37,887 bases of DNA from Gemmatimonadota bacterium (GCA_039588155.1 JBDHAI010000001.1:1-37887); one strand, 5' to 3'. Positions 9,801-21,103 are shown, counted from the stretch's first letter. Numbers and translations are program-made. Notes: generated by a model from the sequence alone, not told the origin.

Positions 9801-12086
9801 TCAGGCGAGCAGGGGCGCCTCCTCCGCCTGCCGTTCGAGGGCATCGACGACCGCGATCGCAGTCAAGTTGACGATTTCGCGCACGTCGGCGCCGCGCTGG
9901 AGGATATGCACCGGCTTCTGCATCCCGAGCAGGATGGGTCCGATCGCCGTGGCGCCACCCAGGCGGGCGAGGATCTTGTAGGCGGCGTTGGCGGTGTTGA
10001 GATCGGGGAAGACGAGGACGTTCGCCTTATCCTGAAGAGCGCTGAAGGGGTAGCGTCGCTTGAGAATATCGGGGACCACCGCGGTATCCGCCTGCATCTC
10101 GCCGTCGATGATGAGGTCGGGGCAGCGGTTCTTAACGATGGCCACGGCTTTGGCGACTTTCGCCGACTCTGGGTGGCGTACCGATCCGAAGTTGGAGAAG
10201 GAGACCATGGCGACGCGGGGATCGACGCCCAAGCGTTGTGCGAAACGAGCGGCGGAGATCGCCGTGTCCGCCAGAGTCTCGGCGTCAGTCATGATGTTCA
10301 CTGTGGTATCGGCGAAGAACATGACGTCTTTTTCCATGACCATCATGTAGAGCCCGGCGACCTTGTGAACGGAGGGGTTCATACCCACGATCTCGAGGCA
10401 GGGCCGAAGCGCATCCGGGTAGTGCATCTCTTGTCCGGCAATAAGTCCGTCCGCATCGCCCATGTGGAGCATCATGGCCGCGTAGTAGATCGGATCCTCC
10501 AGCTTTTCTAGCGCTTCGCCGCGGGTGATCCCCTTTCGCTGGCGCTCTCTGAAGAACTGTTCGACGTAGCCTTCGCGTTTGGCGTGCTCTTCAGGATCGA
10601 CGATCTCGATCTGGTCGAGCTCGAGCTCGATTCCGTATTGCTTGATCGCCCGGGTAATTCGTCTTGGACTGCCGACCAAGATGGGCTGAGCGATTCGCTC
10701 TTCCAGGCAAGTATGCGCGGCGAAGAGGATATGGTCGTCGGTCGCCTCGGGGAAAACGATCCTCTGCAGCTTTGGCGCGTGCTGTGCTTTCACGACGATA
10801 TTACGGGTGACCTCGCGCGCGCGTCCCAAACGTGACTCGAGCTCGTTGCGGTATTCCTCGAGGTCGAGCTGGACGCGCGCGACGCCCGAGTCCATGGCGG
10901 CCTTTGCGACTGCAGGCGCCTCCCAGAGCAGCACGCGGGAGTCGATGGGTTTGGGAATCAAGTAGTCGCGCCCGAAGCTGAGCTTCTGGACTCCGTAGGC
11001 GCGGGCCACGTCCTCGGGCACCGGCTCCTTGGCCAACTCAGCCAAAGCATGTGTTGCCGCCATCTTCATCGCTTCGTTGGTGGCTTTTGCGCGAGCGTCC
11101 AGTGCGCCGCGGAAGATGAACGGGAACCCGAGAACGTTGTTCACTTGGTTCGGGTAGTCGGAGCGCCCCGTGGCCATGATGATGTCCTTGCGGGCCTTGA
11201 GCGCGTCTTCCGGTAGAATCTCCGGGTCTGGATTGGCCATGGCGAATACGATGGGATCGTTGGCCATCGTCTTGATGTCGTCCGGCGTGATGACACCAGG
11301 CTGCGAGAGGCCGATGAATGCGTCGGCGTCCCTGATGGCGTCGGACAATGTCCGATCGGACGTCTTGTGCGCGAAGCGGGCCTTGTACGGGTTGAGTTTG
11401 TCGCGCTCCGAATGGATGACACCCTTGCTGTCGGTCATGAAGATATGCTCGCGCTTCGCACCTAAAGTGATGTAGTGCTCGGCGCAGGCGATTCCCGACG
11501 CGCCGGCGCCGCTCACCACGATCTTCACTTTTGCGATGTCCTTCCCGACGACCTCCAGCGCGTTTACGAGTCCGGCACCGCTGATGATCGCGGTGCCGTG
11601 CTGATCGTCATGGAATACCGGGATATTCAGGCGCTCGATCAGCGTCTTTTCGATGTAGAAGCAGTCGGGAGCCGCGATGTCCTCGAGGTTGATGCCGCCG
11701 ACGGTCGGCTCCAGCAGCTCGCAGAAGCGGATCATGTCTTCCGGATCCTCGCTGCCGACCTCCAGGTCGAACACATCGATGTCGGCAAAGCGCTTGAACA
11801 GAACGCCCTTCCCTTCCATCACCGGCTTCGACGCCAGCGCGCCAATGCGGCCGAGCCCGAGCACCGCGGTGCCGTTGGAGACGACGGCCACCAGGTTGCC
11901 GCGCGCCGTGTACTTGAAGGCCTCATCTTCGTTCTCATGGATCTCGCGGCAGGGCTCGGCGACCCCGGGCGTGTAGGCGAGCGAAAGGTCTCGCTGAGTA
12001 TTGCAGGGCTTCGTTACCTGCAAAGCGATTTTGCCGGGCCGGCCTTCGGAGTGATAGGCCAAGGCCTCATCCCGCTTGATCAGCAT
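9801..12086 (-). CDS. maeB: NADP-dependent malic enzyme (malic enzyme domain fused to a phosphotransacetylase-like domain)
   Basis: 761-aa ORF. The N-terminus [23 protein letters not shown], the NAD(P) fold [13 protein letters not shown] and a roughly 330-aa C-terminal PTA-like domain give the classic MaeB architecture. Confidence 0.95.
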
Positions 12087-12180
12087 GTGCTCTGTCTCCG
12101 TGGGTGCGTGGGGCTAGGTGATCCCCTAACTGCAAAACTAAGGCCACGTAGAAGGGTCGCCACTCGCCACCGAATAACGA

Positions 12181-12378
12181 TTATGGACTGGTGGAGTGGA
12201 TTCCCGTCCAACGCAGTATGTCCTCCATCAGGCACCACCGGGTAATCGCGGACTGCAGCAGATTGACACCGACGAAAGCGGTGAACAAGAACCAGTAGGG
12301 GCTGACCCACCAACCCAAAGCCAGGCTGGCTAGAATAAGGACGCCAGCGATCAGTCGAATCTTGCGCTCGAGTGACAT
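12181..12378 (-). CDS. DUF2892/YgaP-C-terminal-like small inner-membrane protein (65 aa)
   Basis: MSLERKIRLIAGVLILASLALGWWVSPYWFLFTAFVGVNLLQSAITRWCLMEDIL is a two-TM hairpin with the R-x-I-x-G ... G-x-N-L-x-Q-S-A-x-T-x-W-C pattern of the YgaP transmembrane module. It starts 6 nt after the upstream gene's stop. Confidence 0.7.
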   Translation of the reverse strand: MSLERKIRLIAGVLILASLALGWWVSPYWFLFTAFVGVNLLQSAITRWCLMEDILRWTGIHSTSP

Positions 12379-12384
12379 TTTGCC

Positions 12385-12705
12385 TCACCGGTCTAAGGAT
12401 GTGCCGAGCTCACAACAGCTGAACTGCTCCACGTCGAGAAGCGTGGCGCGAATTGGGTGGCGCGGGTCTTGGACGCCGGCGCAGTGGGCGACTGCTTGCA
12501 TGAGGTTCCTCGCTCCCTCGTCGGGGAGGATCGTCATCACCATTCGGGACTGGTAGGGCTGGATTTCGCCTGACCAGCCTGCGGCGCTGCCGGGTCCGTG
12601 ACCCTCGACGGATAGACGGCTGAAGGCTTGGACCTCCAGTTCGCGCAGCAGTCCGTTCACACACTTTTCATCTTCCTGGAGATACATCATCAGCACGAGC
12701 TTCAT
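12385..12705 (-). CDS. P-II-like (GlnB-fold) small protein of the type encoded next to RND pumps (106 aa)
   Basis: MKLVLMMYLQEDEKCVNGLLRELEVQAFSRLSVEGHGPGS...RMVMTILPDEGARNLMQAV...IRATLLDVEQF follows the beta-alpha-beta pattern and the F-[ST]-R-x-x-V-x-G-x-G motif that I recall from efflux-associated P-II family proteins. I moved the start to ATG 12705, 1 nt after the RND stop (track start 12786 lies inside the RND gene). Confidence 0.6.
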   Translation of the reverse strand: MKLVLMMYLQEDEKCVNGLLRELEVQAFSRLSVEGHGPGSAAGWSGEIQPYQSRMVMTILPDEGARNLMQAVAHCAGVQDPRHPIRATLLDVEQFSCCELGTSLDR

Positions 12706-12706
12706 G

Positions 12707-15700
12707 TCATGTCGTCTCCGGTTGAGGGATTGGGCTCGTCGGGCCGGTCTTTCGCTGGTGCACCAGGTAGTAGATGCTAGGGACAACGATCAGCGTGAGC
12801 ACGGTTGATGCGATGGCGCCGGTGATGAGCGCGACGGCGAGCCCTTGGAAGATCGGGTCGAAGAGAATCACGATCGCACCGATCACGACAGTGCCCGCGG
12901 TGAGTGCGATGGGCCGGGTGCGCACGGCGCCGGCCTCGATCACCGCCTGTTCCAGCGGCACCCCGGCGGACCGGCGCGCCTCCAGGTAATCGATGAGCAG
13001 GATGCCGTTACGGACCATGATGCCGGCGAGGGCGATCATGCCGATCATCGACGTGGCTGTGAAGAAAGCGCCGAATATCCAGTGTCCCGGGGCGATGCCC
13101 ACGAGCGTAAGGGGAATTGCGGTCATCATGACGAGGGGGGCGACGAAGGAGCCGAACCAGGCGACAATGAGGACGTAGATGAGCAGCAGCGCTCCTCCGA
13201 AAGCGATTCCAAGGTCTCGGAAGACCTCATAGGTCACCTGCCACTCGCCGTCCCATTTCATCACCGGCTGTTCGATCAGATCGGGCTGACGCGTATAGAG
13301 CTGACCCAAGTTGGCACCGGACGGGAGTTCGATTTCCGCGAGTTGCTCTTTCAGATCGAGAATGGCGTAGACCGGACTTTCGGCTTCGCCGGCCACCTCC
13401 GCCGTCACGTAGACGACGCGTTGGCCGTTCTTACGGTCGATGACCTGCGGCGCGGTGGTCAGCTCCGGCCGCACCAACTCACTGAGCGGCACCATGCCAC
13501 TCCCGGTCATCGAAACCAGGTGAATGCTCCCAAGCCGCTCGATGCCTGAGCGCTCGCCCTCCGTGACGCGCAGGCGCACGGGGACCAACGTGCGAGCCTC
13601 CGGCTGCGACAGATAGGTAGCGATGGAACCGCCGAGCGCCGTTTGAAGCGAGCGGGCGACCGAGGCTTTGGCTACCCCGCTGAGCGCTGCTTTTTCCTCG
13701 TCGATGACCAGGCGAAACTCTTTCTGCGGCTCGTTCAGCGACCAATCGACGTCCACGACGCTGGGGTGTTCCTCGAACGAGTCGCGGATCTCTTTCGCCA
13801 CGCTGGATCGTGATTCCTCGTCCGGCCCGTAGACTTCGGCCACGAGCGTAGAGAAGACCGGCGGTCCCGGCGGGACCTCCACGATCTTCACCCGAGCACC
13901 GGTGTCGGAAGCGAGTGCCAGGCTTTGCACGATCGGCCGTACCCGCTTGGCTACGTCGTGGCTCTGAGCGCTGCGCTCCGACTTATCGACCAGGTTCACC
14001 TGGATGTCGGCGATGTTGGTGCCGCGTCGAAGGTAGTAGTGGCGGATCATGCCGTTGAAGTTGAACGGTGCGGCGGTACCCGCATAGATCTGGATGTCCG
14101 CGATCTCTGGTATTGCGACAAGCGACCGGCCGATATCGTCGGCCAGCGCCGTCGTGACCTCAAGCGGCGTACTCTCGGGCATATCGATGATGATCTGCAT
14201 CTCGTTCTTGTCGTCGAACGGCAGCATCTTCACCGACACCGCACGCGTGAAGAACATGCTCGTGGCACCGATCAATAAGATGGCCACGGCTCCGAGCATT
14301 CCCCACATCCAAATCGGTCGTCGCAGCAGCGGATTCATGATCTTGCTGTAAGCCCGATAGATCCTCGTTCGCTCGAGCACATAGGCCGGCCCGTCGTCCT
14401 TGGCGTGGGCCCGGCGTAGCAGCCGAAAAGCGAGCCAGGGTGTACCCACCAGAGCCACCGCCAGCGAGAAGAGCATCGCCACGGTTGCACCTATGGGCAT
14501 GGGGCTCATGTAGGGACCCATCAGCCCGGACACGAACAGCATGGGCAAGACAGCGGCGATTACGGTCAAGGTGGCGAGGATGGTCGGGTTCCCTACTTCG
14601 TCCACGGCGGCCCGCGCCGCCGCGCGCAATGGTCGGTCGCGCATGGCGAAGTGTCGCTCCATGTTCTCTGCGACGATGATCGAGTCGTCAATGACGATCC
14701 CTGTCACAAAGATGAGCGCGAAAAGCGTGACGCGGTTCAAGGTGTACCCGAAGAACTGGTAGACGAAGAGCGTCAACGCGAAGGTCATCGGGACCGAGAT
14801 CATGACGATGACGGCGCTCCGCCAGCCCATGGCGAAAGCGACGACGAGTCCGACGGCTACGATCGCGAGCAAGAGGTGCTCCTTCAGGGTCGCGACTTTC
14901 TCCCTGGCGGTCTCACCGTAGTTCCGGGTGATCTGCGCTTCGAGTGACTCCGGCAGGATGCTGCCGCGCAGGCTCTCGATCTTCGACTCCAGGGCTTGGC
15001 CGAGTCGTGTCGCGTCGGCACCCGGCCGTTTGGAGACCGCGATCGTCACCATCGGATCGAGATGCTCGCCGGGGACACCCGTGAAGGTGTAGTTGGAGAC
15101 TTCCTCCGGGCCATCGATGACGTCGGCCACGTCAGCGACCTGCACCAGCACACCGTCACGCACGTCGAGCACTACCGAGCCAACGTCATGGGCGGAGGCC
15201 AGGAACGGGCCCGCTGTGACCCGCACGACTTCGTCGCCCTTGGTGTACTGGCCGGCCTGCACGTTGACGTTGGCCATGCGGAGACGTTCGGCGAGCATGT
15301 TGGGGTCGACGCCGTAGGCCGCCATGCGGTCGGGTGAGAGCTCGACGCGAATCTCCCGTGAGTAGCCGCCGGTCACAACCACGTCGCGCACCTCGGGGAT
15401 GGTTTCCAGCGCGACGCGGACTTCGTCAGCAATCTGGCGCAGTGTGGCGTGGTCTTGGCCGTCGCCGGAGAGGGTAACCGTAAAGAACGGCACATCGTCG
15501 ATGGTGACCGTCTTCACCAAAGGCATGTTGAAGCCGGGTGGCATGCGTTCCGCGTACTTCATTAGGGTCGTAAACAGGCGGACCAGGCTCTCCTCCATAT
15601 CGCGGCCCACCTCGTAGCGAACCGTGACCAGGCCAAAACCCATTTCGGCATGGCTGTAGACGTATTCAACTCCCTCAATCCCCGATAGCACGTTCTCCAT

Positions 15701-15913
15701 GGGGATGAGCAGCCGATTTTCCACCTCCGCCGGCGCTGTACCGGGTAAAGGCAAGTAGATGTCGGCTAACGGGACGATGATCTGTGGCTCCTCTTCGCTG
15801 GGCAGCGTGACCACGGTATACAGACCGAGTGCCAGCGCGCCCGCCATCAACAGTGGGGTCAGCTTGGAGGTGAGGAAGGCGTCGGCCAGCTTGCCGGCAA
15901 ACTCACTCTTCAT
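12707..15913 (-). CDS. RND efflux transporter permease (AcrB/HAE-like)
   Basis: 1068-aa ORF with 12-TM / two-large-loop RND organisation. The TM4 motif GIVIDDSIIVAEN (Asp-Asp pair as in AcrB/MexB) differs from the CzcA DFGxxxDGA or CusA types. Confidence 0.95.
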   Translation of the reverse strand: MKSEFAGKLADAFLTSKLTPLLMAGALALGLYTVVTLPSEEEPQIIVPLADIYLPLPGTAPAEVENRLLIPMENVLSGIEGVEYVYSHAEMGFGLVTVRYEVGRDMEESLVRLFTTLMKYAERMPPGFNMPLVKTVTIDDVPFFTVTLSGDGQDHATLRQIADEVRVALETIPEVRDVVVTGGYSREIRVELSPDRMAAYGVDPNMLAERLRMANVNVQAGQYTKGDEVVRVTAGPFLASAHDVGSVVLDVRDGVLVQVADVADVIDGPEEVSNYTFTGVPGEHLDPMVTIAVSKRPGADATRLGQALESKIESLRGSILPESLEAQITRNYGETAREKVATLKEHLLLAIVAVGLVVAFAMGWRSAVIVMISVPMTFALTLFVYQFFGYTLNRVTLFALIFVTGIVIDDSIIVAENMERHFAMRDRPLRAAARAAVDEVGNPTILATLTVIAAVLPMLFVSGLMGPYMSPMPIGATVAMLFSLAVALVGTPWLAFRLLRRAHAKDDGPAYVLERTRIYRAYSKIMNPLLRRPIWMWGMLGAVAILLIGATSMFFTRAVSVKMLPFDDKNEMQIIIDMPESTPLEVTTALADDIGRSLVAIPEIADIQIYAGTAAPFNFNGMIRHYYLRRGTNIADIQVNLVDKSERSAQSHDVAKRVRPIVQSLALASDTGARVKIVEVPPGPPVFSTLVAEVYGPDEESRSSVAKEIRDSFEEHPSVVDVDWSLNEPQKEFRLVIDEEKAALSGVAKASVARSLQTALGGSIATYLSQPEARTLVPVRLRVTEGERSGIERLGSIHLVSMTGSGMVPLSELVRPELTTAPQVIDRKNGQRVVYVTAEVAGEAESPVYAILDLKEQLAEIELPSGANLGQLYTRQPDLIEQPVMKWDGEWQVTYEVFRDLGIAFGGALLLIYVLIVAWFGSFVAPLVMMTAIPLTLVGIAPGHWIFGAFFTATSMIGMIALAGIMVRNGILLIDYLEARRSAGVPLEQAVIEAGAVRTRPIALTAGTVVIGAIVILFDPIFQGLAVALITGAIASTVLTLIVVPSIYYLVHQRKTGPTSPIPQPETT

Positions 15914-16995
15914 CAGACGCCCTCCCCTGTTGCTCGCTCCACCTCGAGGAAAGAAGGCGTCCAGTCGACCTCGCGGACGCTACCGACGGGCTGGCCGTCG
16001 GCGATCTGAGCGCTGGGCTCGCGGACCAACATGGCGGCGTGATTGGGGCCGGCGAGCAGCTCAGTGGCCTCGCCCAGCTGCCGGCCCAGCCGCACCCAGC
16101 GGAGGCGTAGTTCATCGCCGTCAACCACAAACACACCACTCAACTGCCCGCGTTTCACCACCGCGTCTGTGGGTATCCAGCGAGTCACGGCGTTCAACTG
16201 ATCAATCTCCAGTCGGACGAACGCGCCGGGTGGAACCTGCGGCACGTCGAGACCGGGTTCGAACCGGGCCTCGATGCGGAAGCGCCGACTCGCTCGCTCG
16301 ACTGCAGGGACCACGCGAGTCACACGGGCCACATGCCGCGACTTCGTCTCCGGCTGGTAGACCGCGACGTCGTCCCCGACAGCTAGACGTCCTGCCAGCT
16401 CCGCCGGCAAGTCGGCCTGGATCTTCAATGCGCCCTCGCCGATCATTTCCAGAATGGGCATACCCGGCATCGCCAGATCTCCCGGATCGGCTCCCCGCGC
16501 TGTGATGACGCCAGAGAACGGCGCTCGCAGGACGACGTAGTCGCGTTGGGCCCGCGCGTCTCGAAAGCCAGCCTCCGCCATTTCCAGTCGAGCCTCGGCG
16601 TCATCGAGCTCCTGCGCGGTCGCGGCTCCGTCGCGCGCGAGCGCGGCGATGCGGTCGTGCCACCGTTGGGCGAGCTCCGCCGCCGCCCCGGCACTCTCGA
16701 CTCGGGCGTCGATCTCCTTGGTGTCGAGCGTCACGAGGGGCTGGCCCGCGGACACGCGCGAGCCGATATCGACAAGCAGCTGCCGTATAGTGCCGCTCAT
16801 CCGGGTTGCGAGCTCGGCTTGCTGGCTTGCCAGGACCGTCGCCGGCACGGTGAGCACGCCAGGCGAGAAGACTGACCTCGAGGCTACAACGTCCACTGGC
16901 CTCTCCCGCTCGGACAACTCACCCGATTCACCTCCGCAAGCGGCAACGGCTAGGGTGACGAAGGTCAACGCACGGTACCTATCGATCCACTTCAT
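15913..16995 (-). CDS. RND periplasmic adaptor (membrane fusion protein), lipoprotein
   Basis: 360-aa ORF with lipobox LAVAAC. It has an HlyD/AcrA-like lipoyl and coiled-coil region (VSAGQPLVTLD...ELDDAEARLEMAEAGF...VLRAPFSGVI). Its stop shares 1 nt with the RND start (ATGA). Confidence 0.9.
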   Translation of the reverse strand: MKWIDRYRALTFVTLAVAACGGESGELSERERPVDVVASRSVFSPGVLTVPATVLASQQAELATRMSGTIRQLLVDIGSRVSAGQPLVTLDTKEIDARVESAGAAAELAQRWHDRIAALARDGAATAQELDDAEARLEMAEAGFRDARAQRDYVVLRAPFSGVITARGADPGDLAMPGMPILEMIGEGALKIQADLPAELAGRLAVGDDVAVYQPETKSRHVARVTRVVPAVERASRRFRIEARFEPGLDVPQVPPGAFVRLEIDQLNAVTRWIPTDAVVKRGQLSGVFVVDGDELRLRWVRLGRQLGEATELLAGPNHAAMLVREPSAQIADGQPVGSVREVDWTPSFLEVERATGEGV

Positions 16996-16997
16996 GG

Positions 16998-18341
16998 TCA
17001 GCTCTCTGGGTTGGATTGCGATCGGACGAAATCGAGGCGCGCTACGGCCATGTGGTATTTGGCGAGGGCGTCGATGGCTCGCTGGCGCATCGCGGTGGCT
17101 CGTGCTTCGGCCTGCAGTAGATCGGCGGCAGTGGCGAGGCCCTCGTCGAACCGCCGACGCATCAGCTCGCGGCCGGAGTCCGCAGCCACGGAAGCCGCCT
17201 CGGTGGCCTCGACCTGCAGCTGCGCGCTCCTCACGGCTCGCTGTGCCTGGTCAAGCTCCTTCTCTGCATCACGTAAGGCCTGCTCGTACTCGACCTCGGC
17301 GATCCGTTCATTCAGGCTCGCTTGCTGGTTGTCCGCGGAGCGGGCGAAACCGTCGAACAGGTTCCAGCGCAGCATAGCGCCAACGGTCCAATTGTCGTTC
17401 TCGAACTGGATGGGATCCTGGCTGTGCCAGGCGTATTGTGCGAACAAGTCAACGACCGGGATCCAGCCGAGGCGGGCCCGCGTCTTGGCGGCACCCGCGG
17501 CATCGGCTGCGGCGGCCAATGCCTTCAAGTCGGAACGCTGGCCCGGATAGAATTCGACCTCGGCCGACACCGAGGGCGGAGCGAGTGCATCGGAGGGCTC
17601 GGGTATCGTATCCGGGCCCCACCCGAGGTGGCGCGCCAGGTCGTGTAATGCGTCGAGCCTGGCGCGCTCCGCTTCGACTCGCTGAGCGCGCGACGCGGCA
17701 TGCTCGGCTTGGGCCTGAAGGAGATCTGCCTCGGTCAGGAGACCCCGCTCGCGACGCTTGCCGAACGCCTCGAGGGTGGCGTCAGCTGCCTCCAGGTTCG
17801 CCGCCGCCGCCGCGAGCTGCGCGGCCGCAGTCTGCGCTCGGTAGTAGAGTGTGCGGGTGACCAGGATGGTCGCCTCGCGCGTCCGGACGGTGACCCAGTC
17901 CGCTGCCGCGGCCTGGCTCCTGGCGGAAGACCTCCCCGCCCAGGCGGTCGGATCGAGGAGGCTCCAGCGAACGCCGATCGCTGTCGACCAGTCGGCGATG
18001 GCGTTCGGGTTGTTCAAGACCGCGAAATCGAGGTCCTCGGGTCCGAAAGTGCCTTGACGGAGCTTTGTACCGAAGACGGCCACCGGATCGGTGGATCTCA
18101 TGTAGCCGGCGCGAACGTCGAGCCACGGCCACAGCGGACTGGAAGCCGAACGGCCCCGGGCCGACGCGAGGTCTCGCCGGGCCTCGGCAATGGTGAGGTC
18201 GGAATTGCGCTCGAGCGCGGACCGGATGGCCTGCTCGAGTGAGAGCCGACGGGCCACTACAGCGTCACTCTGAGCGCGCGCGGGGGTCGCGGCGGCCAGG
18301 GCGAGCGAGCAAGCGAGCGCTGATCTCATTAAGGTATGCAT
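16998..18341 (-). CDS. TolC-family outer membrane efflux protein
   Basis: Signal peptide MHTLMRSALACSLALAAATPARAQ. Duplicated OEP repeats with long coiled segments are present (LSLEQAIRSALERNSDL..., ...YRAQTAAAQLAAAAANLEAADATLE...). I moved the start to Met20 of the track ORF (ATG 18341); ATG 18329 is also possible. Confidence 0.9.
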   Translation of the reverse strand: MHTLMRSALACSLALAAATPARAQSDAVVARRLSLEQAIRSALERNSDLTIAEARRDLASARGRSASSPLWPWLDVRAGYMRSTDPVAVFGTKLRQGTFGPEDLDFAVLNNPNAIADWSTAIGVRWSLLDPTAWAGRSSARSQAAAADWVTVRTREATILVTRTLYYRAQTAAAQLAAAAANLEAADATLEAFGKRRERGLLTEADLLQAQAEHAASRAQRVEAERARLDALHDLARHLGWGPDTIPEPSDALAPPSVSAEVEFYPGQRSDLKALAAAADAAGAAKTRARLGWIPVVDLFAQYAWHSQDPIQFENDNWTVGAMLRWNLFDGFARSADNQQASLNERIAEVEYEQALRDAEKELDQAQRAVRSAQLQVEATEAASVAADSGRELMRRRFDEGLATAADLLQAEARATAMRQRAIDALAKYHMAVARLDFVRSQSNPES

Positions 18342-18378
18342 ATTTTTATATGTATAGGCGAAAAAAATAGTAGTGTGG

Positions 18379-18684
18379 CTACATCTGACAGTGATCATGT
18401 ATACAGTCGATAACCCGCGTTACCCTGGCATCCTGGATTCGATAGAAGACGTTCACACCATCGCGGCGGCTGGCCAGGACGCCTTTGTCGCGCATGAGGT
18501 TGAGGTGCTGAGAGGCGACGGCCTGCTCAAGCCCGAGTGCTTCGTAGATGGCCGTCACGTTCTGCTCGCCGTCCCTGTCGAGCAGCTCGACTATCTGCAG
18601 GCGGACTGGATGCCCGATGCACTTGAGCATGGTCGCCGCCTGCTGGATCGCTTCCACAGTCAAGTTCTCTGTTCGGGGCATCAT
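18379..18684 (-). CDS. ArsR/SmtB-family (YgaV/BigR-like) transcriptional regulator
   Basis: 101 aa with the winged-helix core LKCIGHPVRLQIVELLDRDGEQNVTAIYEALGLEQAVASQHLNLMRDKGVLASRRDGVNVFYRI. It lacks the ELCVCD alpha3 metal site but has Cys22 and a C-terminal CIHDHC cluster. Confidence 0.9.
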   Translation of the reverse strand: MMPRTENLTVEAIQQAATMLKCIGHPVRLQIVELLDRDGEQNVTAIYEALGLEQAVASQHLNLMRDKGVLASRRDGVNVFYRIQDARVTRVIDCIHDHCQM

Positions 18685-18712
18685 TAGCCGTTACCGTGCA
18701 TAGGTGTTACGG

Positions 18713-18741
18713 TATTATATATAGATATATCTATATGTCAA
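18713..18741 (-). promoter_or_regulatory. Putative arsR promoter with embedded 18-bp perfect palindrome operator
   Basis: The reverse strand reads TTGACA (18741..18736), then tatagatatatctata, then TAATAC. The perfect palindrome ATATAGATATATCTATAT occupies 18719..18736 and fills the -35/-10 spacer. It sits in an AT-rich island in an otherwise GC-rich genome, about 35 nt upstream of the arsR ATG. Confidence 0.5.
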
Positions 18742-18871
18742 CCTTTACTCGAACCGGGCCTTGTGGCTGGGGCTATGGCTGCTGGGCGGGAGCGGACCGC
18801 TTTGCTAGACCGCTTGAAGCCGGGGGCGTAGATTACGCTCAACCCAACCGAGTACCGAGACGGAGGCGACC

Positions 18872-19270
18872 GTGGACATCAAGCCGAACCGGCTGGTGTA
18901 TCTGGGGTATGGCAAGTACTGGCGATCGGATCAGATCACCGGCCTCGTCCCCATCGAAGACGAGCGTGGTCCTGGGCGCCGGACTCACGTTCATGTGGCG
19001 ACTCTTCAGCAGCCGATCGTGGCCTCACGGTCGGAAGACTCGATTCGGCGAGAGATGGCGGCGGCAAGCGACGAGGAGTTCAGAATGGGGGAACTACGTG
19101 CCGCGGTTGGCGACCTGCTCGAGGATATGGCGCAACTTTCCCCTGTGCTGAAGCGCATGCTTCTTCATGAAGGCGGCATGGACATGCGTCGTTGGGAGGA
19201 CCGCCTGCGAGGATTGCTCGGCCATGAGGAGGGTCTGTCTGGTCAGGAGGATCTCTTCAGTTCTGAGTAG
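18872..19270 (+). CDS. Hypothetical small protein; N-terminal part resembles RemA/DUF370, followed by an acidic helical tail
   Basis: 132-aa ORF with a GTG start preceded by GGAGG (5-nt spacer). RLVYLGYGKYWRSDQITGLVPIED and GPGRRTHVHV resemble the RemA motifs INIGFGNxVxxxRIxAIVxPES and YGRRTR (recalled from memory, not searched). Confidence 0.55.
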   Translation: MDIKPNRLVYLGYGKYWRSDQITGLVPIEDERGPGRRTHVHVATLQQPIVASRSEDSIRREMAAASDEEFRMGELRAAVGDLLEDMAQLSPVLKRMLLHEGGMDMRRWEDRLRGLLGHEEGLSGQEDLFSSE

Positions 19271-19333
19271 GGGTGTGGGCGCTGCAGTCGCTCGACTCCG
19301 CCCATCGTCTCGCCGCGTGGCGATCCCCGAATC

Positions 19334-21103
19334 GTGAAGGCACTCGCGTCACATACCGCCGCTATTGTCCTTATCCTGCTCTTCGCACTTGAGCTGCGGG
19401 CTCAGAGCGACGAAGAATGCCAGGACGGGCGGATCGCCAGTATCCAAATCATCACAGAACCCATCTTCGCCGAGGGCGCGGCGGACAGCGTCAACGGTGC
19501 GCTTTCCAAGGTATACGCAGCCGCCAATTGGCTGCACATAGAGACTCGCGAAACGTTCGTCCGGCGCGAGCTCCTGTTCAGAGAGGGGGACTGTGCGGAA
19601 CGGCTGCCCCTGACGGAGAGCGAGCGAATCTTGCGTGGATTTCGTTTTCTGGAAGCGGCGAGCGTCGAGTCGACCCAGCGGCCGGACGGTGATGTAGACG
19701 TGACGGTAACGACCAAAGACGACTGGTCGTTGCGACTCGAGCCTCGATTCAACTTCGGCGGTGGCTTCGCCGTAACGGGTATCAAGGTAGGTGACTCGAA
19801 TCTCGACGGTCGGGGCAGGTTGGTGGAGCTGTCGTACATCCTCCGCTCGGGACAAGATGATGTCCTGCTCAGCTACTTCGATCCGCAGTTCTTGATGACC
19901 CGCTGGGACTTTTCCCTGGGCGTGCTTCGTGGAGGGGCCGGCTGGACGGTCGGTCAGGCGGTTGCTTTTCCCTTCATCGGTCTCGTGGGCAGGAAGGCGG
20001 CGTTTCAGAACGCCCTGTACAGCGAGCGGGAGTTTCGCTACGTCGTAGGGGATTCGAAAGAGAGCACAACAGAGCTGCTCTTACCAACCCTTCAGAAGAC
20101 CTTCGGCCTGGGCGGAGGGCTTCGGACCCGGCCTTCTCTTCTGGGAAGGTCCACGAGACTCTGGTCGTCCGGCCTGTCCTTGTCCTACGAGGATACGAGG
20201 TACAGTTCCAGCGTTTTTGAGGACAGCACTTTCCTGTCCTCGCCGGGCGTCGCGGAGGCGATCGGGGGCGCGACATCCGCTTCGGTGTTACCGCGGAACT
20301 CTCTGCGTCTCAACGTCCTGGGTGGGGTGCGCTGGCTGGATTACGTCAAGCGCGAGGGAGTGAGCACGCTGAGGGCAGTGGAGGACATCGCGCTGGGAGC
20401 TTCAGCGGATGTGCTCGTGGGTGCAGCGCCCGAATGGTTCGGGCTAGAAGATTCGCACGTCTTGTTGGGGTTCGATCTCTATGGCGGAACGCGGGTGCGC
20501 GGCAACTGGTTTTCGGCGCTGCGGATGAACGCGGAAGCTCGCCGTGACTTGGATACGGGAAAGTGGAGAGATAGATATGCGGCTTTTCTGTGGACCAACT
20601 TCTGGGTCGTAAGCTCGCGCAGCACCAACGAGCTCACGGCTAGCTACAGCGCGGGTTGGAAGACGACCGTTCCCTTCCAATTAACGCTTGGCGGACCTTA
20701 CCGCCTGGGGGGATATTCCCTGGACCGATTCCCTAGCGGTGCACGGGCGGTTTTACGGTTGGAAAATCGTTACAATCTCACGAGGCTCGGTAAACTCATC
20801 GACTTCGGCAGTGTAGTCTTCTTCGACTTGGGCGAGGCGTGGTCGAATGGAGCGCTCTTCGGGGTCGACTCGGGCCTGCGAGCTTCGGCTGGGATCGGCC
20901 TTCGGTTTGCCGTGCCCGCCGGTAGCCGGCAGACCTATCGACTGCAGATCGGGATCCCTCTCGACGACGGGGTCAACTTCGGCGATTTCGTTTTCTCACT
21001 CAGCATCGACCGTCTCCTGAGGGTGGAGACCGATTTGATAGACCCGCAGCTGGCCCGGAGTCGCGATCCCGCGATTCGTTCCGCGGGCCGATTCCTGAAG
21101 TGA
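19334..21103 (+). CDS. Omp85/BamA-TamA family outer membrane protein (single POTRA + beta-barrel)
   Basis: Signal peptide VKALASHTAAIVLILLFALELRAQ, followed by a POTRA-like segment (IASIQIITEPIF...ERILRGFRFLEAASVEST..VDVTVTTKDDW). A roughly 450-aa region of alternating beta-strand pattern ends in an aromatic-rich C-terminus. GTG start with a weak SD. Confidence 0.75.
   Translation: MKALASHTAAIVLILLFALELRAQSDEECQDGRIASIQIITEPIFAEGAADSVNGALSKVYAAANWLHIETRETFVRRELLFREGDCAERLPLTESERILRGFRFLEAASVESTQRPDGDVDVTVTTKDDWSLRLEPRFNFGGGFAVTGIKVGDSNLDGRGRLVELSYILRSGQDDVLLSYFDPQFLMTRWDFSLGVLRGGAGWTVGQAVAFPFIGLVGRKAAFQNALYSEREFRYVVGDSKESTTELLLPTLQKTFGLGGGLRTRPSLLGRSTRLWSSGLSLSYEDTRYSSSVFEDSTFLSSPGVAEAIGGATSASVLPRNSLRLNVLGGVRWLDYVKREGVSTLRAVEDIALGASADVLVGAAPEWFGLEDSHVLLGFDLYGGTRVRGNWFSALRMNAEARRDLDTGKWRDRYAAFLWTNFWVVSSRSTNELTASYSAGWKTTVPFQLTLGGPYRLGGYSLDRFPSGARAVLRLENRYNLTRLGKLIDFGSVVFFDLGEAWSNGALFGVDSGLRASAGIGLRFAVPAGSRQTYRLQIGIPLDDGVNFGDFVFSLSIDRLLRVETDLIDPQLARSRDPAIRSAGRFLK

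Follow-up and report, generated by a model that had tools for sequence, protein, structure and literature searches.

A conserved Gemmatimonadota operon encoding an ArsR-family regulator, a tripartite RND efflux pump and two small putative partner proteins

Gene content and control region

The window analyzed here is a stretch of 37,887 nucleotides from a Gemmatimonadota metagenome-assembled genome (MAG; GCA_039588155.1, JBDHAI010000001.1:1-37887; assembly size 3.25 Mb). Positions 12181-18741 hold six open reading frames (ORFs), which encode, in this order, an ArsR-family regulator, an outer-membrane protein (OMP), a membrane fusion protein (MFP), a resistance-nodulation-division (RND) permease, a small cytoplasmic protein resembling P-II (hereafter P-II-like) and a DUF2892 membrane protein (Table 1). 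An earlier note on this DNA described six co-directional genes, and re-reading of the ORFs recovered its coordinates exactly, with junctions of 37, 2, -1, 1 and 6 nt between successive genes. The MFP gene follows the OMP gene after a 2-nt gap and overlaps the RND gene by 1 nt, and the P-II-like gene starts 1 nt past the RND stop codon. Curated Pfam or NCBIfam cut-offs are passed for five of the six identities, the P-II-like protein being the exception by sequence. Genes for an outer-membrane efflux protein (OEP), an MFP and an RND permease are contiguous (PF02321, TIGR01730, PF00873), so the gene set for tripartite RND efflux is complete. Very probably, the locus encodes an ArsR-repressed tripartite pump with two dedicated partners; judged from its sequence, the operon itself is real and conserved, and it is probably autoregulated.

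Table 1. Genes and control elements of the operon, in window coordinates
Feature	Coordinates	Strand	Description	Evidence
arsR	18379..18684	-	ArsR/SmtB-family repressor, 101 aa	NF033788 78.5 bits (cut-off 55); PF01022 HTH_5 33.4 (22); PF12840 HTH_20 35.8 (27)
OMP	16998..18341	-	TolC/OEP-family outer-membrane channel, 447 aa, signal peptide	PF02321 E 1.4e-51, two repeats
MFP	15913..16995	-	Periplasmic adaptor lipoprotein, 360 aa, lipobox LAVAAC	TIGR01730 155 bits (cut-off 94.9); HlyD_3, HlyD_D23
RND	12707..15913	-	RND permease, 1068 aa	ACR_tran PF00873 E 4.4e-156, residues 21-1052
P-II-like	12385..12705	-	P-II-fold small cytoplasmic protein (predicted), 106 aa	Fold match; PF00543 20.3 bits (cut-off 25)
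DUF2892	12181..12378	-	YgaP-like two-helix membrane protein, 65 aa	PF11127 (YgaP-like_TM) 50.4 bits (cut-off 25.3)
Promoter	18714..18741	-	Sigma-70-type, TTGACA-16-TATAAT	12/12 consensus positions; only such match in 11900-19400
Palindrome	18719..18736		18-bp perfect palindrome ATATAGATATATCTATAT, presumed ArsR operator	Between -35 and -10, filling the promoter's 16-nt spacer
Second repeat	18335..18356	-	AT-rich inverted repeat TATACATATAAAAATATGCATA	Overlaps OMP start codon

A palindrome placed within a promoter spacer is the classic layout for an autoregulated ArsR operator, and the one upstream of arsR is a candidate operator on this basis. The earlier note had already picked it out, and its position inside the spacer of a full-consensus promoter supports that choice. 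Its 14-mer core occurs once in the assembly, and a genome-wide regulon search returned no further operator copies except for one site with two mismatches on contig C74. In 22 orthologous loci the region upstream of arsR likewise carries a TTGACA -35 element followed by AT-rich inverted repeats of the AGATAT/ATATCT type, set in GC-rich surrounding DNA. When 777 kb of fetched loci were searched with the pattern AGATAT-N0-10-ATATCT, all 13 matches fell directly upstream of arsR or within the arsR-OMP spacer. No terminator-like site was found on the coding strand at the locus. The second inverted repeat, at the OMP start codon, may be a second operator, a translational element or a start-codon mask. 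In the form ACACATA-N-AATATGNATA it recurs in the arsR-OMP spacer throughout the closest family and at a few other loci, including two more distant ones.

Conservation of the module and placement of its pump

The six-gene operon is conserved in sediment Gemmatimonadota. Gene order was compared at 18 loci from a sample of 401 Gemmatimonadota genomes and at 34 loci found by scanning GTDB species genomes with a narrow P-II-like alignment, a search biased towards close relatives. The order ArsR-OMP-MFP-RND-PII-DUF2892 is kept wherever the contig is long enough, with few exceptions. RND orthologues, defined by at least 68% identity, are present in 20 of the 401 genomes and the P-II-like protein in 19, all of them among the 20 with the pump. 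Across these loci, identity to the proteins of the window is 68-86% for the RND, 69-85% for DUF2892, 41-79% for the P-II-like protein and 32-68% for the OMP, whose position is always the same. The recurrence of one gene order in different families of the phylum goes far beyond what chance would produce. The earlier note had proposed a composite module and set its conservation in relatives as a test beforehand; arsR, the P-II-like gene and the DUF2892 gene do accompany the pump in practically all relatives whose context is complete.

The place of the regulator in this module is upheld for most Gemmatimonadota loci, but not throughout. In one subclade (L022, L025, L029, L053, L059, L062, L065, L067) the co-directional arsR is swapped for a different ArsR (30-37% identity) that is divergently transcribed upstream of the OMP gene. 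This protein has an LCELVCRS motif in helix alpha5 and no alpha2 Cys; the same type also lies beside sister pumps (L096, L098, L099, L102; see below) and resembles Pseudanabaena ArsR1. Bacteroidota such as Chondrinema litorale carry OMP-MFP-RND-PII-DUF2892 without ArsR. Because arsR is replaced in one case and absent in the other, these five genes constitute the invariant core.

Two further loci depart from the common plan. L093:3137-9051 (G356) has ArsR-OMP-MFP-RND, with an RND 69% identical to that of the window, and neither a P-II-like nor a DUF2892 gene downstream; in place of these tail genes, two ORFs lie there on the other strand, one for an unrelated membrane protein of 70 aa and one of 403 aa. 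At L070:9696-10392, in one Gemmatimonadota MAG, the genes for OMP, MFP and RND are missing together with the first ~42 codons of the P-II-like gene. An arsR encoding Cys22 and CIHDHC directly precedes what is left of that gene, its C-terminal half, and the DUF2892 gene is intact. Either the pump was deleted naturally or the assembly is at fault. In the window, the next gene downstream of the operon, 94 nt away, encodes a malic enzyme/PTA fusion, and it is placed outside the module because its synteny extends only to the closest relatives.

What kind of pump does the operon encode? Alignment against E. coli references places the VIDDSIIVAEN motif of transmembrane helix 4 (TM4) on AcrB D407/D408. 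An Arg occupies the position of AcrB Lys940 in TM10, and Arg971 and Thr978 are kept in TM11, giving a DD/R/R/T relay. The positions of CusA Met573, Met623 and Met672 are Ile, Ile and a gap, and the CusA relay residues E939 and K984 are replaced by Arg and Ile, respectively. The earlier description of TM4 as AcrB-like rather than CusA/CzcA-like is thus confirmed. A CusA-like copper mechanism was considered and rejected, as both the Met triad and the E939/K984 relay are absent.

Assignment to the hydrophobe/amphiphile efflux (HAE) pumps, also suggested in the earlier note, agrees with the AcrB-type relay and less well with the family models. The HAE1 models score 273 (TIGR00915, cut-off 940) and 426 (NF033617, cut-off 1250). 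The protein does not classify with the heavy-metal efflux (HME) pumps either, scoring 313 with TIGR00914 (cut-off 701) and having no Met triad; the comparison with CzcA was by the TM4 motif (DFG-DGA-VEN). The HAE-versus-HME classification thus falls below the cut-offs on both sides, and the RND lies below every NCBIfam cut-off despite its full-length match to PF00873. Identity to AcrB, CusA, MdtB and MdtC is 20.6-23.0% (AcrB 20.6%), and the best relatives of solved structure, TriC, OqxB, MexK, MdtB and ZneA, all score alike.

Closer relatives, with 42-49% identity, were found in cultured bacteria by tblastn of plasmids. In a FastTree phylogeny of 30 sequences, the Gemmatimonadota pumps and these DUF2892-linked pumps form one clade with support of 1.0, apart from AcrB, MdtB/C and CusA. 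On sequence, the RND is a member of a separate, DUF2892-linked clade and probably not of HAE1 proper; to our knowledge, this clade has never been functionally characterized. Its members are free of cysteine (none in 1050-1120 residues, with a single Cys in a Vibrio member), whereas E. coli AcrB, CusA and MdtB/C have 2-4. The mature OMP likewise lacks cysteine, and the only Cys of the MFP is that of the lipobox.

The regulator and the two small partners

SqrR/BigR sensors carry one Cys in alpha2 (SqrR C41) and one in the C-terminal part of alpha5 (SqrR C107), which form an intraprotomer tetrasulfide. ArsR proteins of the R773 type have a CVC/CxCxxC motif in helix alpha3, and alpha5 sites of the SmtB/CzrA type use Asp/His...His/Glu ligands from both protomers. 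The closest solved structures to the window's ArsR are BigR, SqrR, PagR and YgaV (E 3e-12 to 3e-11), and it is 33% identical to YgaV. Cys22 and a CIHDHC cluster (Cys94...Cys99) are present and the classical CVC is absent, as the earlier note had read. There is no Cys in the alpha3 region, and the PRK10141 score of 36.5 (cut-off 97) likewise separates the protein from the classical As(III)-type ArsR.

Conservation in 113 ArsR orthologues is 100% for Cys94, 99% for Cys99 and 96% for Cys22, compared with 72% for His96 and 69% for His98. The alpha5 helix of the window's protein has Asp93, His96 and His98, the histidines being only partly conserved; both are absent in families f2, f6 and f9, and Cys99 is lost in f6. 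As candidate sensor residues, conservation favours Cys94 and Cys99 of CIHDHC, together with Cys22, over the histidines, which are not conserved beyond the closest family. Position 33, which corresponds to the SqrR alpha2 Cys, is Glu in the window and Glu or Asp in 110 of the 113 orthologues, and with this replacement a BigR/YgaV-type sensor, one of the two types that the earlier note considered, is not sustained in the strict sense.

On alpha5, Cys99 lies one residue off the SqrR C107 column, and families f2 and f9 have a C-x3-C pair. The same C-x3-C stands in the same place (LCELVCGR) in the ArsRs of sister-pump loci, among them the ArsRs whose genes adjoin those for rhodanese and for proteins like persulfide dioxygenase (PDO). 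A homologue search with the window's ArsR returned Gemmatimonadota orthologues only, with no outside parallel for the Cys layout, and we know of no ArsR sensor that combines Cys22 with an alpha5 C-x3/4-C pair. The protein would be a thiol-based sensor of non-canonical layout, and the mechanism that best matches its context is bridging by persulfide or polysulfide.

The DUF2892 protein aligns to residues 111-165 of YgaP with 38% identity, and its Cys falls on YgaP Cys159. This Cys is invariant, is placed on the cytoplasmic side and lies in the motif WCLMEDILR; the protein belongs to the PF11127 family. Taken with the similarity of the ArsR to YgaV and the adjacency of ygaV and ygaP in K-12, this bears out at the level of sequence the YgaV/YgaP analogy drawn in the earlier note. 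The YgaP membrane domain binds thiocyanate (SCN-) via its second transmembrane helix (PMC4730233). A DUF2892 gene is adjacent to the RND gene in 22 of the 26 clade members examined, from Gemmatimonadota, Bacteroidota, Pseudomonadota and Cyanobacteriota, and the proteins of the clade are of one subtype (VGxNLxQSAxTxxC). The window's own genome has a second, more canonical DUF2892 protein (PF11127, 73.6 bits) on contig C166 (L091:4913-5134), encoded beside a TonB-C protein with no pump linked.

An ArsR gene often lies near the DUF2892-linked pumps and, in several cases, so do genes for a rhodanese, a PDO-like protein or a protein resembling sulfide:quinone oxidoreductase (SQR). On plasmid 1 of Paracoccus denitrificans PD1222, DUF2892-MFP-RND is accompanied by genes for a PDO-like hydrolase, YeeE, a sulfurtransferase, an SQR-like oxidoreductase and an ArsR with the two canonical SqrR/BigR cysteines. 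The pump locus of Pseudanabaena (ABRG5-3) has an SQR-like gene and a rhodanese gene, that of Azospirillum a rhodanese gene, and that of Methylocella genes for a rhodanese and an FAD-dependent oxidoreductase. Within Gemmatimonadota, a sister clade of the pump (46-52% identity) is found in ~115 of the 401 genomes and has DUF2892 adjacent in seven of eight loci examined (48-51% identity); at L099 and L102, genes for a PDO-like hydrolase of the metallo-beta-lactamase (MBL) type and a rhodanese adjoin ArsR. According to a 2025 survey, ArsR genes for sulfane-sulfur sensing have RND pumps among their neighbours (PMC12423496), and in Azospira suillum H2S induces both an RND/SQR operon and a DUF2892 gene (PMC5358917). 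Elsewhere in the window's own genome, contig C177 (L090:4938-7609) carries a cluster encoding a Pyr_redox_2 oxidoreductase, DUF1641, a DsrC/TusE-like and a DsrE-like protein. This locus is of the sulfur-trafficking type and unlinked to the operon; its Pyr_redox_2 protein is 28% identical to the SQR-like protein of Paracoccus.

The other small protein is recognizable mainly by its fold. An AF2 model built on 28 homologues (pLDDT 87.7) has the order beta-alpha-beta-beta-alpha-beta, with a T-loop-like segment of lower pLDDT at residues 36-50. The top Foldseek matches in the Protein Data Bank (PDB) are all GlnK, GlnZ or PII (E ~1e-6, TM 0.68). By sequence the signal is below threshold, with 20 of the 28 family members matching PF00543 weakly and a profile search against PDB sequences returning only noise; the identity offered in the earlier note is thus carried by the predicted fold. 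DUF3240 was considered as an identity, on one weak match from one member, and yielded no useful literature. A profile search of 1.84 billion representatives found only 211 proteins, the named ones from Gemmatimonadota and Bacteroidota, with canonical P-II out of reach. The P-II fold is confidently predicted, and the protein appears to form a small family of its own.

Members share the motif DPRHPIRA near the C-terminal end of the fold, and those of families f1, f2 and f9 end in a CC/CxC tail. A homologue of 101-104 aa (P0045) occupies the same operon slot in Chondrinema litorale and other Bacteroidota (hhalign 92.9%, E 4e-7) and contains no cysteine.

Possible functions and known counterparts

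The pump family repeatedly sits among sulfide-detoxifying genes, and for this reason the pump is more likely to serve reactive sulfur than drugs or metals. We give an even chance to the reading in which a thiol-switched repressor controls a pump for reactive sulfur, where both inducer and substrate are what we infer. At rest, an ArsR dimer would sit on the palindrome in the promoter spacer, as its position and conservation suggest, and block its own gene and the five genes downstream. A thiol-reactive signal, most likely sulfane sulfur (persulfide or polysulfide) arising from sulfide stress, would modify Cys94 and Cys99 in alpha5 together with Cys22 and so release the repressor. The OMP, MFP and RND could then assemble into a proton-driven tripartite pump which, from its motifs, would use an AcrB-type Asp-Asp/Arg/Arg relay and, from the neighbourhoods of its family, might take up a compound that is thiol-reactive or derived from sulfur, in the inner membrane or the periplasm, and expel it through the outer membrane.

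The DUF2892 and P-II-like proteins would be made in step with this pump through translational coupling, the former as a homologue of the thiocyanate-binding membrane domain of YgaP. The P-II-like protein, presumably a trimer, might dock on DUF2892 or on the trimeric pump at its cytoplasmic face and tune activity, a speculative step modelled on GlnK/AmtB and SbtB/SbtA. A bolder version seems to us unlikely: that a P-II trimer plugs the cytoplasmic face of the RND, directly or via DUF2892, and gates efflux according to a cytoplasmic ligand, which would be the first case of an RND pump under post-translational control of the P-II type, and that the pump with DUF2892 is devoted to exporting reactive sulfur (polysulfide or elemental sulfur) through both membranes.

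Several observations weigh against a sulfur-responsive pump. No homologue of SQR, PDO, rhodanese, YeeE, DsbA or DUF302 lies within the flanks (~10 kb) of any P-II-bearing locus in Gemmatimonadota or Bacteroidota, and for that reason the sulfur link of the window's operon is indirect, resting on relatives of 42-51% identity. The BigR model NF040642 scores 57.5 against a cut-off of 155, and the regulator lacks the two-Cys arrangement of SqrR/BigR/YgaV. Judged by sequence, its three conserved cysteines could serve just as well for As(III), Cd, Hg or Pb, and His96/His98 of the closest family, like the CC/CxC tail of the P-II-like protein, are suggestive of metals. In Bacteroidota the module is without ArsR and its P-II-like protein without cysteine. 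Contact between P-II-like protein and pump is speculative, a pure analogy.

A different proposal is efflux of soft metals or metalloids, in which the ArsR would bind As(III), Sb(III), Cd, Hg, Pb, Zn or Cu(I) via Cys22/94/99 (with His96/98 in the closest family) and the P-II-like protein would act as a metal sensor or chaperone in the manner of PII-NG or CutA. The only regulator model passed is that of generic metalloregulatory ArsR/SmtB proteins, an S3 site is plausible from the three conserved cysteines, and the D-C-I-H-D-H-C cluster in the window's own family and the P-II-like C-terminal tail would suit such ligands. The MFP weakly matches models of the CzcB/CusB type, and PII-NG proteins in czcABC operons, induced by Co in Geobacter (PMC7726332), provide a precedent. 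Two Metal_resist (PF13801) genes also lie beside one Bacteroidota five-gene core (L083:9638-11436), together with a gene for an extracytoplasmic function (ECF) sigma factor, on the opposite strand. The permease, however, shows neither the Met triad nor the E939/K984 relay of CusA, its DD pair is of the AcrB type and its score lies well below the HME cut-off, and the relatives of the pump adjoin sulfur enzymes rather than metal genes. Neither the histidines nor the CxC tail is conserved across the range of the module, the Bacteroidota P-II homologue being cysteine-free, and the P-II-like family lies beyond the reach of HMMER from canonical P-II (the 211 matches above). We regard metal efflux as somewhat unlikely.

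A general pump for hydrophobes, electrophiles or oxidants would explain the AcrB-type relay and the lack of any metal signature, and the top matches of solved structure (TriC, OqxB, MexK, MdtB) point the same way. Here the two- or three-Cys ArsR would be oxidized or alkylated by quinones, aldehydes, HOCl or peroxides, the pump would clear amphiphilic toxicants in the manner of HAE1 pumps, and the tail proteins would be AcrZ-like assembly or stability factors; thiol switches answer many electrophiles, and sulfur enzymes are missing near the P-II-bearing loci. Set against this, the pump has only 21-23% identity to HAE1 pumps and a clade of its own, and the link with DUF2892 across phyla, with recurrent sulfur neighbours, implies a narrower role. 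The RND is also far better conserved across families than the OMP, which suggests a specific substrate. A broad role of this kind is, in our view, quite unlikely. That the genes are chance neighbours in separate transcription units, with spurious small ORFs, is highly improbable and already contradicted by comparative genomics: the P-II-like ORF does fall under the Pfam threshold, but gene order is conserved across families and five genes across two phyla, the P-II-like gene accompanies all but one of the RND orthologues, junctions are of 1-6 nt or overlapping, the P-II fold is confidently predicted and DUF2892 is strongly conserved across the phylum.

RND pumps have been studied almost wholly as drug and metal exporters. 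The operon belongs to a widespread pump clade that travels with a tiny Cys-bearing membrane protein; several phyla add genes for sulfide detoxification and regulators of the persulfide type. Should this clade indeed export reactive sulfur, it would supply a missing step in the disposal of sulfane sulfur by Gram-negative bacteria, its passage through the outer membrane. The pump clade and its association with sulfur were already noticed in the 2025 survey (PMC12423496). The P-II-fold partner is a family of its own, which the Gemmatimonadota/Bacteroidota branch adds privately to the pump. The P-II-RND pair offers a concrete, testable case for a new kind of pump control. The presumed palindromic operator is clean and suited to in vitro work, and cultured Bacteroidota (Chondrinema litorale and a Fulvivirgaceae isolate) carry the five-gene core, which makes experiments feasible.

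Among the known systems close to the operon are the DUF2892-linked MFP-RND pumps of Paracoccus, Pseudanabaena and Methylocella, which share with the window the RND clade (42-44% identity, support 1.0), the DUF2892 subtype and a nearby ArsR. These loci have no P-II-like gene and usually no OMP gene, and they include SQR-like, rhodanese or PDO-like genes, whereas the window's operon is self-contained, adds the OMP and P-II-like genes and has no sulfur enzyme within 10 kb. The H2S-induced operon Dsui_3440-3443 of Azospira suillum is likened to these by description only.

The regulator shares family, fold and the presence of cysteines with SqrR of Rhodobacter capsulatus, BigR of Xylella and Acinetobacter and YgaV of E. 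coli, and its alpha5 Cys lies near SqrR Cys107. It is paired with a DUF2892 membrane module as YgaV is with YgaP, and relatives of its pump, as in Paracoccus, are flanked by canonical two-Cys members of the SqrR/BigR group. It differs in that the alpha2 Cys is replaced, the set being Cys22 at the end of alpha1 and a C-x3/4-C pair on alpha5. The presumed operators differ as well, the window having an AGATAT/ATATCT palindrome and SqrR, for which rcc1451 is one natural operator, a published box of ATTC-N8-GAAT (bioRxiv 10.64898/2026.05.02.721436).

For the small partners the counterparts are more distant. Regulation of a trimeric membrane transporter by a protein that is itself a trimer is the classic role of P-II; GlnK regulates AmtB, and SbtB regulates SbtA, by direct binding. 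The window's protein resembles these in its predicted P-II fold, its T-loop-like segment and its encoding beside a transporter presumed trimeric, a likeness by analogy. PII-NG denotes P-II proteins whose genes accompany czcABC (Sant'Anna et al. 2009, cited in PMC7726332), as at Geobacter GSU2134-2137, and compared by gene context only they too are small cytoplasmic P-II-fold proteins in one operon with a tripartite RND pump. PII-NG is, however, proteobacterial, recognizable by PF00543, linked to metals and encoded ahead of an HME-type pump, whereas the window's protein is sub-threshold for PF00543, follows a non-HME pump and belongs to a Gemmatimonadota/Bacteroidota family. AcrZ and AcrB likewise offer a small membrane partner co-encoded with an RND pump, AcrZ being a single helix unrelated to DUF2892.

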